Shown: piece by piece, positions 22,045 through 27,485 of the stretch
Layout of the letters: each line of letters begins with the position of its first letter
Numbering within the stretch: the stretch's first letter is position 1
Origin: Limisphaerales bacterium
GTDB lineage: Bacteria; Verrucomicrobiota; Verrucomicrobiia; Limisphaerales; AAA164-E04
DNA length: 64,000 nucleotides
Direction of reading: 5' to 3'
Assembly: GCA_965203425.1 (NCBI GenBank)
Contig: OZ241891.1
Span: 172,247-236,246 of the forward strand
Translations under genes and position numbers: made by a program
The notes under the pieces: model-generated
What the model saw: only the letters and a program-made list of their open reading frames with translations
The model's database searches: none
What the model was told of the DNA's origin: nothing

Positions 22045-25000
22045 TCAAGTTGGGTGACTGGTTGTTTTAGGTTGTTGTTGGCGTTGGTCGAGCAGGGATT
22101 TTGTTTGGGCTAACCAATCGCTTTTGGGAAGGGCGTAGGGGCGGAAGGTTTCTTGCCAGCCTTTTCGCTCGTGGCAGAGGAGGGCGCGGTGCAGTCCTAG
22201 TTGGTTTGCTTGGGTGCTGTCGATTAGGGATGCGGAGTCATTGGCGCTCATTTGGAGGAGGATGCGCATTTCGAATTCGGGGAGGGTATTTCGGTTTAGG
22301 GATTTCTGGAGGTTGTTGTAGGTGTCGGTTGTGGCGATGGTTCGGATTCCTAATTTTCCGCCGTCGTGGATGATTTGGTTGAAGGTGGTTGCGGTTTTTT
22401 CGCTTTGCGCATCGTCGGCATGGATTGGGATGGCAAACTCGTCTTGGGGACGGAGTTTTTTGAAGGATTGGAGGCCGATGACGATTAGGAAGATTGCGGG
22501 GGATGTATTTTCATTTGTTTGGCGGCGGCGTTTTTCGGCATCGGCTTCTTGCATCATTGTATCTAGGTTTGTGTTTTTTAGGGTTCGGATGGGGTGCGGT
22601 AGTATAGTTGGCAAGCTGTCTATTAGTTTGCGGTGGGGTGCGTGATTGGGAATGGAGTCGAGAATCCAAAATTGCGCTTGTTTGGCTGGGTAGTGAGCGG
22701 CTAGGGAGATTATGCTACAGAGGACTAGGGAGAAGGTTGTTTCTTGGTTTTGCCCGAGGATGAGGAGGTTATTGCCGTTTTGGAGTTCGAAGATGGCTTC
22801 CGTGGGGCCTTTGATTGCGTTGGGGTCGCCTAACCAAGCACGAATTTTGTTGGGGGTTTTGCTTGGGTTGTTTTTCAAAGCCGCGGCGAGCAGGGTGTTT
22901 TCCGCAATGTCGGCGGGGGCGTTTCCTTCGAAGATGATTGGTTTTTTGTTTTGCCAAGTGGTTTTGTCGGCGAGTTGGCGGATTTGTTTTAGTTGGCAAT
23001 CGCGTTCTGCGTCCGAAAGCCAGACTGTTTGGAAGGGGCGGTTTCCTTCCAGCACGCCGCCGCTGTCGTTATAGACGCCTTCTCCGGGACGGGAGAGCCA
23101 CTTTGGCGCCGCATTGTTCTCATCCATGATCAAGCAGGCGTCCGCCTCGTCGCATTGAAGTGCGATGCGGACGGCCATTTGCGCGAGGGTGGTTCGAGCT
23201 AATGTGTAGGCGCCGCCCAAAGTTTGGGAACCTAGAATCATGTGAATGCCAAAGGCGCGTCCTTGCCGGATGATTCTATCCAACAAGGCCGCTGCGTTTT
23301 GTGACACTTTGTCTTCTTCGACGAAATACTCTTGAAACTCGTCAATCATCACGAGCGTTCTGGGCAAAGTCTCGCCCGGCGCCGCCTTATGATAACTGGG
23401 CAAATCCTGCGCGCCTCGTTGGCGAAATAGTTCGCCGCGGCGCCTCAATTCTTCATCCACTCGCTCCAAAACGCCGAGGCCGAATTCCCGGTCGCTTTCG
23501 ATGGCCACTACTCGTGCGTGAGGCAAACGGCGTCGAGCGTAACACTGGAATTCCACGCCTTTTTTGAAATCAACGAGATAAAACTCCACTTGATCCGGCC
23601 CGAACCACAAGGCTAGATTCGTTGCTATCACGTGAAAGAGCGTCGATTTCCCAGAACCTGTCTTGCCGGCAATTAGAACGTGCTGCTGCGTTCCCTTGCC
23701 CAAAGTTAAGTGTTGCCATTTTGAAGCGCCGGTTCGCCCAATCGGCACTTGAACGCCGACGTCGGCGCGCTGCGACCAAAGTTTGTCCGCTTTGGGAGCG
23801 ACCGATTCAAACGGCACTTCAACCCGGCCGCCATCCGCGCTGGTTTGTCCCACTTTGCGCAAAATCTCGACCGCCAACTCGGCATTAGGAAGCGCATCCC
23901 AACGCAGTCGAAGCCCTCGCCATCGCCGCCCGCAAAACTCGCAATCGCCGCTGCGCAACCGCAACCATTGACAATGCGAGCGCAAGTCTTCTTCCAATGC
24001 TTTGTCGGGCAGAGGCTGCCGCAAATCTCGATGAACGATCAAAAAAACGCCACACCGCGGCCCGCTGGTCACAATGCTTTGAAGCCGCCGAAAAGCCGCT
24101 TCGCTAAAACCAACCGGGAAATCGGCCACAACCAAAAAATGATACTTTTCGGCAATGCTGCCGGCCGCCTCGTTGTATTGAGCAAGCGTTTCATACTCGT
24201 TGCGCAGGCACATTTGCGTCACTTTTTCCATATGCTCGGTCAACTCCCGCAAACACCGATCCAGATGGTCTGCCTGAGTCCAAATGCGGCGATGAATGAT
24301 CTGCTCGTCGTAGTCCGCCAAATGCATCAGCCCGGCAAAATTCTGTCCCAAGCCCGCCGGATCAAAAATCCGCAAGGCAATCTTTCCCGCTGGCGAGCTT
24401 GTCAAGAGCCTTAGCAAGATTCCATTCATTGCCGAAATCACTTCTGCGCTGCTTTTGGCGTCGTCGGTTTCGAACAGCAAGGATTCTCCCACGGGCATTT
24501 TGACGACCAACGGCACCGCCAAAGAATTCCCTTTGCTCCAAGCGGGTTGCGCACCTTGAGGCAATTCTTCGGTCAAGCAATTGAGATTCACTTCCAATTC
24601 GGCAAACCGCGCCGCCGCCGCTTCTCCCACTGCCGGCGCCCAATCTGCCCAAGCGCTCGGCTTCCAATCTAAAAAGACTTCGGCGCCGGCCTTGCGACTG
24701 CGTTCCAAATCTCGCAAAAATCCAGAAGTCTTGGCTCGCCATTCGCGCGACAAGTCGTTCATTCGATTCCGAAACTGGGCGGATACTTCCGCCGCAAGAC
24801 GAGTTTTTTCCGTCTCGGCGCGAGCCAATTCCGAAGCGAATTCATCGCCCGCAAGCCCGCCGGAGGAACGATGAGAAGCCAAGGCCGCTTGAAACCGCCG
24901 CTCGTGTTGCCTCAACAAACGTTCGCGCTGTGCCTCTAGTTTTTCCGTTCCGCTTTGCAATCGCCTTGAGGCTTCTGCATCCGCAGAATGCCGGGCCTGT

Positions 25001-25965
25001 TCTAGACGGTTTTCGACGTTTTGAAATTGCCGTTTGATCTGTTTCACGGCCTCTTGAAAGCGGTGATTCGCGCATTCTTGACAGCTCGAAAACAAGCTTT
25101 GCGCTCGCCAAAACTTTTCAGCAATCCGCTTCGCCCGCCGGCGTCCAAAGACAAACCCAAGGCCATACAAAGCCAAAACGCCAAAACATCCACCGGCCAT
25201 CGCAAAGGCCAGCGTCTTCCAGGAAATTCCCAAGGTTTCCAAGGCCGCAGGCGTCCAAAAAATCCCTCCCCCAACGCCAAGAATACTTGCCAAAATCAAC
25301 CACAAACGAACCCAAGCAAAAAGTCTCGCAACAAGATTTTGGGACAACTGATTCAACTCCGCCTCCCAATGGCCGACCGTCTCCCGAAATCCTCGCAGAA
25401 CAGCGTGCTCATCAGAATATTCGGAAAGAAAAACCGCGTCGTTTTCAATCTGTCGGCGGAGCAAGTCTACCCAAGAAGCATACCCGCGAAACAAACGCCG
25501 AGAACGATCCGTCAGGCTTTGGAAACGCTCCGCTTCCTCTTGCAATTCCTGTTGAAAATCTTGCTGTTCACGCTTTGCCGATTGCAAAGCGGCATCGTGT
25601 TCTCGGCTCGCGTGCAACAGGATTTTTTGATTTTCGTACTTTTGCTGGCTACGCAATTGATCCGCCGATTGTCGAATCGTAGCCAAAGCGCGTTCGGCGG
25701 CCTGTTGGATTCGAAGTTTTCGGGACAAATTCAGCGCGCGAATCTTCGACTCCTCCGCTTCAAAATTTGCAAGTGCCTGCCGTTTCGCCTCTGCTTCTTG
25801 CCGGCGGAATCGTTCTTTCAAAAGACTGTATCGGCGCCGAATTTCTTTCAGTTCTTTGTCATGTTCGGCGCGCAAAGCCGACTCTTGGCGAGCCGCATCT
25901 CGAAGCGTTCGCCGTAGCGAATCCACAATCGACAAAGTTTGCCTTGTGGTGAGCAACTCATTCAC
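22045..25965 (-). CDS. Membrane-anchored multi-module FtsK/SpoIIIE-family ATPase (EssC/EccC-like)
   Basis: 1306 aa. It has about 215 aa of N-terminal coiled coil, then hydrophobic segments (LFAWVRLWLILASILGVGGGIFW; LAFAMAGGCFGVLALYGLGFVFG) and a second coiled coil. Three FtsK-like modules follow. The middle one has canonical Walker A VLIAGKTGSGKST and Walker B TLVMIDEFQ. The flanking ones are degenerate (KYHFLVVADFP/GVFLIVHRD and NLLILGQNQETTFS/AIFLIVIGLQSF). Confidence 0.8.
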   Translation of the reverse strand: MNELLTTRQTLSIVDSLRRTLRDAARQESALRAEHDKELKEIRRRYSLLKERFRRQEAEAKRQALANFEAEESKIRALNLSRKLRIQQAAERALATIRQSADQLRSQQKYENQKILLHASREHDAALQSAKREQQDFQQELQEEAERFQSLTDRSRRLFRGYASWVDLLRRQIENDAVFLSEYSDEHAVLRGFRETVGHWEAELNQLSQNLVARLFAWVRLWLILASILGVGGGIFWTPAALETLGISWKTLAFAMAGGCFGVLALYGLGFVFGRRRAKRIAEKFWRAQSLFSSCQECANHRFQEAVKQIKRQFQNVENRLEQARHSADAEASRRLQSGTEKLEAQRERLLRQHERRFQAALASHRSSGGLAGDEFASELARAETEKTRLAAEVSAQFRNRMNDLSREWRAKTSGFLRDLERSRKAGAEVFLDWKPSAWADWAPAVGEAAAARFAELEVNLNCLTEELPQGAQPAWSKGNSLAVPLVVKMPVGESLLFETDDAKSSAEVISAMNGILLRLLTSSPAGKIALRIFDPAGLGQNFAGLMHLADYDEQIIHRRIWTQADHLDRCLRELTEHMEKVTQMCLRNEYETLAQYNEAAGSIAEKYHFLVVADFPVGFSEAAFRRLQSIVTSGPRCGVFLIVHRDLRQPLPDKALEEDLRSHCQWLRLRSGDCEFCGRRWRGLRLRWDALPNAELAVEILRKVGQTSADGGRVEVPFESVAPKADKLWSQRADVGVQVPIGRTGASKWQHLTLGKGTQQHVLIAGKTGSGKSTLFHVIATNLALWFGPDQVEFYLVDFKKGVEFQCYARRRLPHARVVAIESDREFGLGVLERVDEELRRRGELFRQRGAQDLPSYHKAAPGETLPRTLVMIDEFQEYFVEEDKVSQNAAALLDRIIRQGRAFGIHMILGSQTLGGAYTLARTTLAQMAVRIALQCDEADACLIMDENNAAPKWLSRPGEGVYNDSGGVLEGNRPFQTVWLSDAERDCQLKQIRQLADKTTWQNKKPIIFEGNAPADIAENTLLAAALKNNPSKTPNKIRAWLGDPNAIKGPTEAIFELQNGNNLLILGQNQETTFSLVLCSIISLAAHYPAKQAQFWILDSIPNHAPHRKLIDSLPTILPHPIRTLKNTNLDTMMQEADAEKRRRQTNENTSPAIFLIVIGLQSFKKLRPQDEFAIPIHADDAQSEKTATTFNQIIHDGGKLGIRTIATTDTYNNLQKSLNRNTLPEFEMRILLQMSANDSASLIDSTQANQLGLHRALLCHERKGWQETFRPYALPKSDWLAQTKSLLDQRQQQPKTTSHPT

Positions 25966-27047: not shown

Positions 27048-27485
27048 TTATTCCCGTTCCTTTGGCGATGTTTCCTCTCCAAATCGAGAACCATTTTCTG
27101 GGAAGCAAGCCGTCTGAGCGGCGCCGATCAAATCTTCGGAAGCTCCCTTTTCTCGAAGCGCACTCGTCACCCGCGCTTGAATTCGCGCCCGCTCTTTGTC
27201 CAGTCTTTTCTTTGCGATTTCCCTCGCTTTCTCTCGCAACACATCTCCAAAAGCCATAATCCAATCTCCCGTTTGAAATAAAAACCAAACCGTCGCCACC
27301 GTCGCTACAACACTATACCCAACCGCATTGAGCTTTTCAATCCAACTTTTATGGTCTTGAAACAGCGTCAGCAAGGCCAAACCAGAACCGTAAACCGAAA
27401 CAACGCCGTAAAACCATCCTCTGTATTTGGGATTGATTCCCCAGATCGTTTCTCTGGACTTGTCTTCCGTTTTCTCAATTTCCAT
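27048..27485 (-). CDS. Two-TM membrane protein with C-terminal charged helix, first gene of the putative secretion operon
   Basis: 145 aa. The TM segments are WFYGVVSVYGSGLALLTLF and VGYSVVATVATVWFLF, followed by REKAREIAKKRLDKERARIQ. Confidence 0.5.
   Translation of the reverse strand: MEIEKTEDKSRETIWGINPKYRGWFYGVVSVYGSGLALLTLFQDHKSWIEKLNAVGYSVVATVATVWFLFQTGDWIMAFGDVLREKAREIAKKRLDKERARIQARVTSALREKGASEDLIGAAQTACFPENGSRFGEETSPKERE

Follow-up and report, generated by a model that had tools for sequence, protein, structure and literature searches.

Five co-directional open reading frames (ORFs) occupy positions 22045-27485 on the minus strand of the window, the whole 64-kb stretch of Limisphaerales DNA that was analyzed. 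The last four of these genes form a conserved cassette that encodes a WXG100-family protein, two further small proteins (p189 and p69) and a large ATPase resembling the EccC and EssC proteins of type VII secretion systems (T7SSs). The ORF listing of the window agrees with the initial annotation in the direction and sizes of the five genes, as well as in their tight packing, with gaps of 38 and 3 nucleotides (nt) and overlaps of 4 and 8 nt. In the order of transcription, the genes and the regions of the ATPase are as follows:

27048-27485, minus strand: 145-amino-acid (aa) membrane protein, a lineage-specific neighbour outside the conserved cassette, present only in loci L006 and L009 besides the window
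26737-27009, minus strand: WXG100-family protein, 90 aa, gene 1 of the cassette, with a PF06013 match
26164-26733, minus strand: p189, 189 aa, unannotated family, a long helical hairpin as predicted by AlphaFold2
25958-26167, minus strand: p69, 69 aa, a probable short WXG100 paralogue from hhalign comparisons
22045-25965, minus strand: EccC/EssC-like ATPase, 1306 aa, with a PF01580 match and three FtsK-like modules
25342-25965, minus strand: ATPase residues 1-208, predicted cytoplasmic N-terminal coiled coil, from hydrophobic periodicity
25144-25335, minus strand: ATPase residues 211-274, two predicted transmembrane (TM) helices, from Kyte-Doolittle analysis
23791-24588, minus strand: module D1, residues 460-725, degenerate and without a Walker A motif, from hhalign and the AlphaFold model
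23041-23790, minus strand: module D2, residues 726-975, the sole catalytically intact module, from its Walker A and B motifs
22096-23040, minus strand: module D3, residues 976-1290, degenerate, from hhalign

The chosen start codons are backed by the conserved N-termini of the orthologues, which also agree with the placement of the 90-aa start at an internal ATG of a 183-aa ORF. The 8-nt overlap between the p69 and ATPase genes suggests translational coupling. The host is a diderm of the Verrucomicrobiota, as had been surmised, because its closest genomes are Limisphaerales/Pedosphaera metagenome-assembled genomes (MAGs) and the window also encodes TonB, a tetratricopeptide-repeat (TPR) protein and a TonB-dependent receptor just upstream of the cassette.

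A search with the full-length ATPase recovers only 23 relatives, but the tiny family that this result suggests is an artefact: the long N-terminal coiled coil misleads a word-indexed homology search, and at least 8000 candidates are obtained at E≤1e-8 when residues 431-1306 are used as the query. The top 120 relatives have lengths of approximately 1300 aa and identities of 53% or more; proteins of Pedosphaera parvula Ellin514 and Fontisphaera persica are among them. In species-representative genomes, 20 Verrucomicrobiota loci and two loci of Planctomycetota MAGs were recovered; gene order was compared in the 14 non-redundant loci of these two phyla with enough flanking DNA, to which the locus counts below refer. 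The order WXG100-p189-p69-ATPase is kept in 14/14 loci, which places the arrangement beyond chance, and these four are the only gene clusters common to all of them. In the Planctomycetota locus L023, the identities are 52% for the WXG100 protein, 29% for p189, 31% for p69 and 44% for the ATPase. The expected co-occurrence of the small proteins with the ATPase is thus observed from Verrucomicrobiota into Planctomycetota. The conserved unit comprises four genes rather than the five initially proposed, because the 145-aa gene is confined to L006 and L009. The other neighbours are housekeeping or lineage-specific genes, such as those downstream for a peptide deformylase, a kinase and ParB (5-6 loci; ParB in 5/14), and a TonB-dependent receptor gene lies upstream in four loci. 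No relaxase or type IV secretion system (T4SS) genes are present in the 14 loci, and the flanks of the cassette have no conserved defence genes in either phylum.

The ATPase, which scores 98.5 bits against PF01580 in Pfam, is laid out as a coiled coil, two TM helices, a second coiled coil and three FtsK-like modules. Residues 1-208 show a hydrophobic periodicity of 3.5 residues (z of 3.7 against shuffled sequences, compared with 0.2 for D2 as the control), lack proline and have a high content of E, R, Q, A and L; these features point to a long N-terminal coiled coil, as in the module described by Zhang et al. and Bell et al. (see below). Their mean identity across the homologues is only ~35%. 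Residues 278-445 form a second region of the coiled-coil type (z of 4.1 against 0.2 in the control). No relationship between these coiled coils and p189, p69 or the WXG100 protein is detected by hhalign. In the Kyte-Doolittle profile, two hydrophobic segments (residues 211-242 and 251-274) are separated by a loop of ~8 residues, and hydrophobic segments at the TM positions are found in 64 of 65 family members as well as in the ATPase of L023. The sequence RRRAKR follows directly after the second TM helix; by the positive-inside rule, the C-terminal part should therefore be cytoplasmic, which would place both termini in the cytoplasm.

The sole Walker A motif, GKTGSGKS (residues 767-774; window 23644-23667), is located in D2, which also carries the Walker B motif VMIDEF. 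The Walker A residues and the D-E pair of Walker B are invariant in 66 sequences. The only match to G-x4-GK[ST] in the ATPase is that at residue 767, and D1 lacks a Walker A motif. D3 aligns with D2 in hhalign over 196 columns (probability 97%, E of 8e-11), with GQNQETTF opposite the Walker A motif, and D1 aligns with D3 (probability 82%, E of 1.1e-5). D2 has the highest mean identity (77%), followed by D1 (57%), D3 (52%) and the coiled-coil and TM parts (30-35%). The AlphaFold2 model of residues 431-1306 (predicted local distance difference test (pLDDT) score of 86.8; predicted template modelling score of 0.74) contains three alpha/beta modules, and the predicted fold superposes on D1-D3 of EccC. 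Foldseek matches the model best, over its full length, to the cytoplasmic domain of Thermomonospora curvata EccC with its three ATPases (E of 8.5e-32), followed by D2-D3 of EccC, D2-D3 of EssC, and then the FtsK motor (~5e-16) and TcpA (~5e-14). The three modules recognized by eye in the initial annotation are consequently recovered by profile alignment, by the predicted structure and by its closest match, with one Walker A motif among them.

The same ranking is obtained from sequence comparisons. A single-sequence search of the PDB returns EccC (2.8e-30), EccC5 (1.5e-23) and YukB (2.8e-18) ahead of TcpA (1.7e-11) and FtsK (5e-8), and the family profile scores 128 bits against EccC, 115 against EccC5 and 100 against YukB/EssC, compared with 61 against FtsK and 50 against TcpA. 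The FtsK alpha and gamma domains (PF17854 and PF09397) have no Pfam match in the ATPase. The best NCBIfam matches all fall far below the equivalog cutoffs (EccCa, 108 versus 509; EccCb, 95 versus 347; EssC, 92 versus 778). By score ranking and fold superposition, on which this placement is based, the ATPase appears nearer to EccC/EssC than to FtsK or TcpA, in line with the EccC/EssC-type assignment made at the outset, and clustering with chromosome-segregation FtsK or with TraB/TcpA is not indicated. The matches of the ATPase in PADLOC (SspH, mads_8, HerA and the ZorA tail) were rejected as evidence of defence since they reflect a generic FtsK domain or coiled coil. In the phage collection, only single-domain FtsK-like matches were found.

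The 90-aa protein exceeds the Pfam threshold for WXG100 (PF06013, 38.4 bits versus a cutoff of 27.3), which confirms the family suspected from its size and helical character. Its closest relative in the PDB is HP0062 of Helicobacter pylori (3FX7/2GTS; E of 1.2e-5), a dimeric helical hairpin in which W-R-D replaces W-x-G (PMC3397514). In the window protein, the bend of the hairpin carries W-Q-D in place of W-x-G, as was noticed initially, and this motif is kept across the loci of Verrucomicrobiota and Planctomycetota. The bend of more distant relatives reads WQD, WRD, WKD or WHD, except in a Helicobacter plasmid protein, which has W-G-D. The identity of the WXG100 protein is 68-98% across the Verrucomicrobiota loci and falls to the 52% given above in the Planctomycetota MAG, a degree of conservation similar to that of the catalytic D2 module and higher than that of D1, D3 and the coiled-coil and TM parts. 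Additionally, helix 2 of the WXG100 protein closes with a conserved [ILV]-[DE]-x-Y motif (residues 81-85, RIEAYL; window 26755-26769), and helix 2 of p189 ends in the same way (residues 149-152, SLDGYW; window 26278-26289). The tyrosine of this motif is also present in the WXG100 proteins of Caballeronia, Helicobacter, Rhodococcus and L004, and in HP0062. The motif is distinct from the canonical YxxxD/E and could be a shared recognition element.

p69 has no match in Pfam, NCBIfam or PADLOC. The residues that are invariant in the orthologue alignment are W20, W27, D29, F35, E36 and C68, and the resulting W-x-D...F-E signature resembles that of the WXG100 protein. In hhalign, p69 aligns with a profile of diverse WXG100 proteins with the motif in register (probability 74%, P of 2.7e-5), whereas the control comparison with p189 gives a P of 0.056. 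The hidden Markov model (HMM) of p69 cross-matches only true WXG100 proteins, at 11-17 bits, with everything else at 5 bits or less; it scores 35 bits against the protein L004_72. p69 is therefore probably a short WXG100 paralogue, an assignment with moderate support. Of the helical hairpins that the initial annotation expected, that of p189 is recovered by AlphaFold2 and that of the 90-aa protein by its relationship to WXG100 and HP0062; p69 may adopt the same fold, to judge from its weak WXG100 homology. The penultimate cysteine of p69 (C68, window 25961-25966; ...KVRKDC[EG]) is invariant and is also found in the distant L004 homologue (...QQNCRD), and it is a possible site of disulphide formation or modification. 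No other WXG-, p69- or p189-like ORF is present within the 64-kb window.

The AlphaFold2 model of p189 (pLDDT of 88.2) shows a single long hairpin (helices at residues 10-75 and 79-166) that continues into a disordered, variable tail. The protein has no match in Pfam, NCBIfam or PADLOC, and the only matches to its model in a Foldseek search were long hairpins of a generic kind, none of which reached E≤1e-3. It is present in 14/14 loci and belongs to a family of 2864 representative clusters at E≤1e-3. The best 150 of the 2864 clusters are all stand-alone proteins of ~120-245 aa, and in a separate set, 105/105 homologues stand alone and have no toxin domain.

Partners of the same kinds accompany distant ATPases. 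In L004 (GCA_025490955.1, contig JAOQIC010000363.1, 1-14652), the ATPase is ~28% identical, and HMM searches identify homologues of p69 (35 bits), WXG100 (48 bits) and p189 (23 bits). On a Rhodococcus plasmid, whose ATPase is also ~28% identical, there are matches to p189 (17 bits) and WXG100 (33 bits). The p189 homologues adjoin the ATPases in both, and the gene orders differ from that of the window. Because the partners travel with ATPases that are only ~28% identical, the quartet can be regarded as a functional module. The L004 module also adjoins a ubiquitin-like set comprising a YukD-like ubiquitin-like protein, a ThiF E1, three UQ_con E2s, three JAB deubiquitinases and a Prok-RING protein, a context that may tie YukD, a component of T7SSb, to a ubiquitin-like conjugation pathway.

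Two plasmid relatives differ in the protein at the position of p189. The order on a Caballeronia plasmid is VWA, WXG100, a 436-aa protein, a 113-aa protein, a 76-aa protein, a TM-less ATPase, CARF, VWA, PP2C and a kinase; the ATPase aligns over D1 and D2 (29% identity, E of 8e-49), and the WXG100 protein scores 75 bits against the HMM of the window family. Such surroundings correspond to the TerY-P/CoCoNuT setting that Bell et al. 2024 (PMC11090510) describe. The other relative, L028, is located at 5746-10148 of plasmid NZ_AP024820.1 of Helicobacter sp. NHP19-012, a diderm host, and encodes, in this order, WXG100 (89 aa), a helical protein of 340 aa, an immunity-type protein, a protein of 77 aa and the ATPase. 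A Tox-WHH/colicin-DNase nuclease (PF14414, 44.6 bits) forms the C-terminal end of the 340-aa protein, and the protein that follows belongs to the SUKH-1 (SMI1/KNR4) family. A toxin accompanied by a SUKH immunity protein is a signature of exported polymorphic toxins, and the arrangement in L028 therefore implies export. This suggests that the protein at the p189 position is cargo in the toxin-bearing relatives. A toxin domain is absent from p189 of the Verrucomicrobiota lineage, and no immunity gene follows it.

The initial annotation regarded the system as plausibly undescribed, which does not hold, as the class had already been recognized computationally in three bodies of work, the third of which concerns HP0062/HP0066 of H. 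pylori (see below). Zhang et al. 2012 (PMC3482391, Table 1 footnote 6) described a solo WXG protein with a YueA-like ATPase of three FtsK/HerA domains, "only the middle one active", named verrucomicrobia and planctomycetes as carriers, and linked polymorphic toxins with WXG domains. Bell et al. 2024 (PMC11090510) described a CoCoNuT-linked form that has a central-only-active ATPase with an N-terminal coiled coil of more than 200 residues and no TM helix, two WXG100 proteins, one of them motif-less, and a coiled-coil-nuclease fusion. A stand-alone secretion-system form in other genomes is attributed to Anantharaman et al. 2012, as cited in PMC11090510. The window cassette resembles this module in its three FtsK modules with only the central one intact, the N-terminal coiled coil of ~200 aa, the adjacent WXG100 protein, the second WXG100-like small protein and the coiled-coil protein between them. 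The cassette thus shares its defining features, namely the central-only-active ATPase, the coiled coil and, with moderate support, the second WXG100-like protein, and its ATPase and WXG100 protein are directly related in sequence to those of the Caballeronia plasmid. The CoCoNuT form is without TM helices, has a nuclease-fused coiled-coil protein and is found in defence loci, whereas the window has two conserved TM helices, a p189 without an enzymatic domain and housekeeping flanks; the cassette is of the stand-alone subtype and is not associated with CoCoNuT or TerY-P. The earlier descriptions amount to a footnote and a paragraph, in which the four-gene core and the p189 and p69 families are not defined. 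The cassette is therefore a new chromosomal, TM-anchored example of a kind recognized computationally, to which the present analysis adds the four-gene core, the exclusion of the gene annotated as 2-TM, the p189 and p69 families, the conserved TM anchor and a Helicobacter relative with a toxin/immunity pair.

HP0062/HP0066 of H. pylori, a member of the class, has been called a minimal T7SS (PMC4978471). It resembles the cassette in the W-x-D bend, the diderm host and the clustering of a WXG100 protein with an FtsK/SpoIIIE protein (PMC3397514, PMC4978471), whereas its other neighbours differ, among them a reported DnaK homologue; the ATPase was compared through the Helicobacter plasmid homologue. 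With T7SSa (ESX; EccC) and T7SSb-j (EssC/TsxC) of Actinomycetota and Bacillota, the cassette shares a 2-TM ATPase, tandem FtsK modules, an operonic WXG100 protein and small hairpin partners. In contrast to T7SSa and T7SSb, D1 is degenerate and only D2 is active, an FHA domain and an EccC-type DUF domain are absent, long coiled coils flank the TM helices, W-x-D replaces W-x-G, and the scores are sub-equivalog; the accessory components are not found in the locus, the host is a diderm, and the operon encodes no component of the outer membrane. The cassette has the minimal T7SS architecture, a membrane-anchored tandem-FtsK ATPase with an adjacent WXG100 protein, but its ATPase is not an EccC/EssC equivalog in terms of cutoffs, an active D1 or accessory components in the locus. 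A further likeness exists to the LXG toxins of T7SSb and their Lap targeting factors (PMC9600955), in which a protein with a long helical N-terminal domain and two small helical partners are also encoded beside the ATPase, and the nuclease toxin and immunity gene of the Helicobacter plasmid relative occupy the corresponding position; however, p189 has no LXG match in Pfam and no toxin domain, and the likeness is one of gene position and predicted shape. Textbooks and recent surveys (for example, PMC11217815) treat the T7SS as a system of Actinomycetota and Bacillota, and a 2024 survey of T7SS variants covers Gram-positive phyla only. No paper linking the T7SS to Verrucomicrobiota or Planctomycetota was found in the searchable literature.

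In light of these similarities, we consider it probable, with modest confidence, that the four-gene module is a minimal T7SS-like protein exporter across the inner membrane. The ATPase would form hexamers, as is usual for FtsK-family ATPases, and the 12 TM helices of the hexamer may form a channel in the manner of the EccC TM helices in ESX-5, where EccC is reported, in the introduction of PMC11217815, to be the central secretion pore. The WXG100 protein and p69 may assemble as a four-helix bundle, to which the p189 hairpin may or may not be bound. As the signal binds to D3 of EccC, so this cargo would be expected to bind to one of the degenerate modules and thereby to trigger ATP hydrolysis in D2, the source of the power stroke that would move the helical cargo into the periplasm. 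Because nothing is encoded for crossing the outer membrane, the cargo is likely to end up in the periplasm or the inner membrane, and the absence of a toxin or immunity gene from the cassette, together with a conservation of the WXG100 protein similar to that of the catalytic module, argues for a physiological role rather than that of an arms-race effector. A more specific proposal, which we put forward tentatively, is that the ATPase alone, as a 12-TM hexamer that needs no accessory membrane proteins, may be a self-sufficient translocon that exports a WXG100/p69/p189 complex to the periplasm of diderm PVC (Planctomycetes-Verrucomicrobia-Chlamydiae) bacteria in a physiological, non-toxin role. 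If true, this would be the first functional T7SS-type pathway in outer-membrane bacteria and the simplest known, and the p189 family (~2900 representative clusters, no Pfam model) would represent a new class of T7SS cargo or adaptor.

Several findings weigh against export. D1 is the main motor module in EccC and EssC, and the intact D1 that characterizes them is missing here. EccB/D/E, MycP, EssA/B, EsaA and YukD are neither detected by Pfam in the cassette and its flanks nor conserved across the 14 loci, and no outer-membrane component is conserved near the cassette in these loci, which bears out the absence of further T7SS components and of an outer-membrane conduit noted by eye. The YxxxD/E export motif is absent, by eye, from the C-termini of the WXG100 protein and p189, and the predicted periplasmic loop has only ~8 residues. 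The p189 HMM has no similarity to the nuclease-fused positional counterparts Cab_436 and Hel_HNH340, and the equivalence of p189 with the toxin-bearing protein is therefore positional only. Relatives in defence islands (such as the Caballeronia plasmid ATPase and P0013) lack TM helices, which indicates that the core activity of the module need not be membrane translocation. No functional study or secretion experiment for any diderm member was found in the searchable literature, and the statement in the initial annotation that WXG100/FtsK pairs in PVC phyla had been noted in silico without functional description is correct to that extent. Part of this evidence would be explained by a non-secretory, membrane-tethered machine that remodels, unfolds or assembles hairpin proteins at the cytoplasmic face in stress, signalling or defence, with the WXG100-type proteins as regulators or adaptors rather than cargo. 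Such a machine would fit the TM-less homologues within CoCoNuT/TerY-P loci, for which Bell et al. state that 'a different mechanism appears likely' (PMC11090510), the VWA, CARF, PP2C and kinase genes of the Caballeronia plasmid, and the ubiquitin-like conjugation genes beside the L004 module, as well as the tiny periplasmic loop, the degenerate D1, the lack of a conserved partner in either membrane and the strong purifying selection on the WXG100 protein; the p189 hairpin also resembles those of PspA/Vipp1 and chemoreceptors, although not significantly. However, the TM pair is kept throughout the Verrucomicrobiota/Planctomycetota clade, every one of the nearest characterized relatives is a secretion ATPase, the surroundings of the cassette in these phyla include no conserved defence genes, and the toxin/immunity pair of the Helicobacter cassette implies export, so that we regard this explanation as rather unlikely, if the most serious of the alternatives.

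Delivery of toxins for interbacterial competition, with an effector encoded elsewhere in the genome, would retain the secretory function and is compatible with the WHH nuclease and SUKH immunity gene in the cassette of the Helicobacter plasmid relative and with the link between WXG domains and polymorphic toxins (Zhang et al. 2012, PMC3482391). It seems improbable for the window, where p189 belongs to a family of stand-alone proteins without toxin domains (105/105; best 150 of 2864 clusters), the cassette has no immunity gene, no additional WXG-, p69- or p189-like ORF is present in the 64 kb and the neighbours are housekeeping genes. The public annotation of such ATPases as FtsK or DNA segregation ATPases, the PF01580 domain and the ParB gene downstream in 5/14 loci would instead favour a DNA translocase of the FtsK/SpoIIIE, TraB or TcpA type, with a role in segregation, conjugation or DNA uptake. 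This is highly improbable: FtsK and TcpA score 40-80 bits under EccC/EssC, and the obligate partners are WXG100-type proteins. The sequence does not appear to be that of an FtsK/SpoIIIE translocase, as it has three modules rather than one, no alpha or gamma domain and 61 bits against FtsK versus 128 against EccC, nor that of a TraB/TcpA coupling ATPase, given the 50 bits against TcpA and the absence of relaxase, T4SS or other conjugation genes from the 14 loci.

A T7SS-related module in diderm phyla had previously been recorded only in footnotes. With a defined four-gene core and cultured carriers, P. parvula Ellin514 and F. persica, both the stand-alone EccC-like translocon and the role of WXG100 proteins in diderms become testable. 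If the module exports protein, it would be a minimal T7SS and a useful model for the mechanism of EccC/EssC.

Upstream of the cassette, the 145-aa gene is preceded by the following gene:

27555-28877, minus strand: N6/N4 DNA methyltransferase, 440 aa (PF01555, 70.8 bits)

The methylase gene and the 145-aa gene lie between the TonB-dependent receptor gene and the cassette, and besides the window both are found only in the two closest genomes, L006 and L009; the 145-aa gene is absent from the 12 other loci. The 145-aa product has no family match in Pfam, NCBIfam or PADLOC. Its initial description as a membrane protein stands, with one hydrophobic segment above the Kyte-Doolittle threshold rather than the two TM helices claimed. 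A repeat search revealed no convincing bounding repeats or target duplications around this insertion. No partner restriction enzyme is evident for the methylase, and the start regions of the methylase and 145-aa genes are alike (26-nt direct repeat, 77% identity).

A promoter-like block (...TGCTCCTATAAT/TATACT) is located ~55 nt upstream of the WXG100 gene and is kept in most loci, as is a GAAAGGA ribosome-binding site before this gene. The consensus of the block, TTTTCCTxAxCGGGxCTGAxAxxTGCTCCTATAxT, is found in loci L007, L008, L009-L013, L020 and L025. In the window (27010-27230), as in L006, the 3' end of the 145-aa gene stands in place of this block; transcription that starts upstream may therefore run through into the cassette here. 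A sigma-70-like site lies within the 145-aa gene at 27340-27312.

Farther upstream, the TonB-dependent receptor, TPR protein and TonB genes form a cluster on the minus strand at 28966-34132, which continues with ExbB/ExbD in L001 and adjoins the cassette in only 4/14 loci. Downstream of the cassette, two ORFs of 142 and 251 aa between the ATPase and the following proteins have no family match; these proteins are a GLUG-motif/EF-hand protein (418 aa, 18829-20085) and, farther downstream, a HEAT-repeat protein (752 aa, 15110-17368). Additionally, a strong terminator-like hairpin is located at 28928-28896, just downstream of the TonB-dependent receptor gene.

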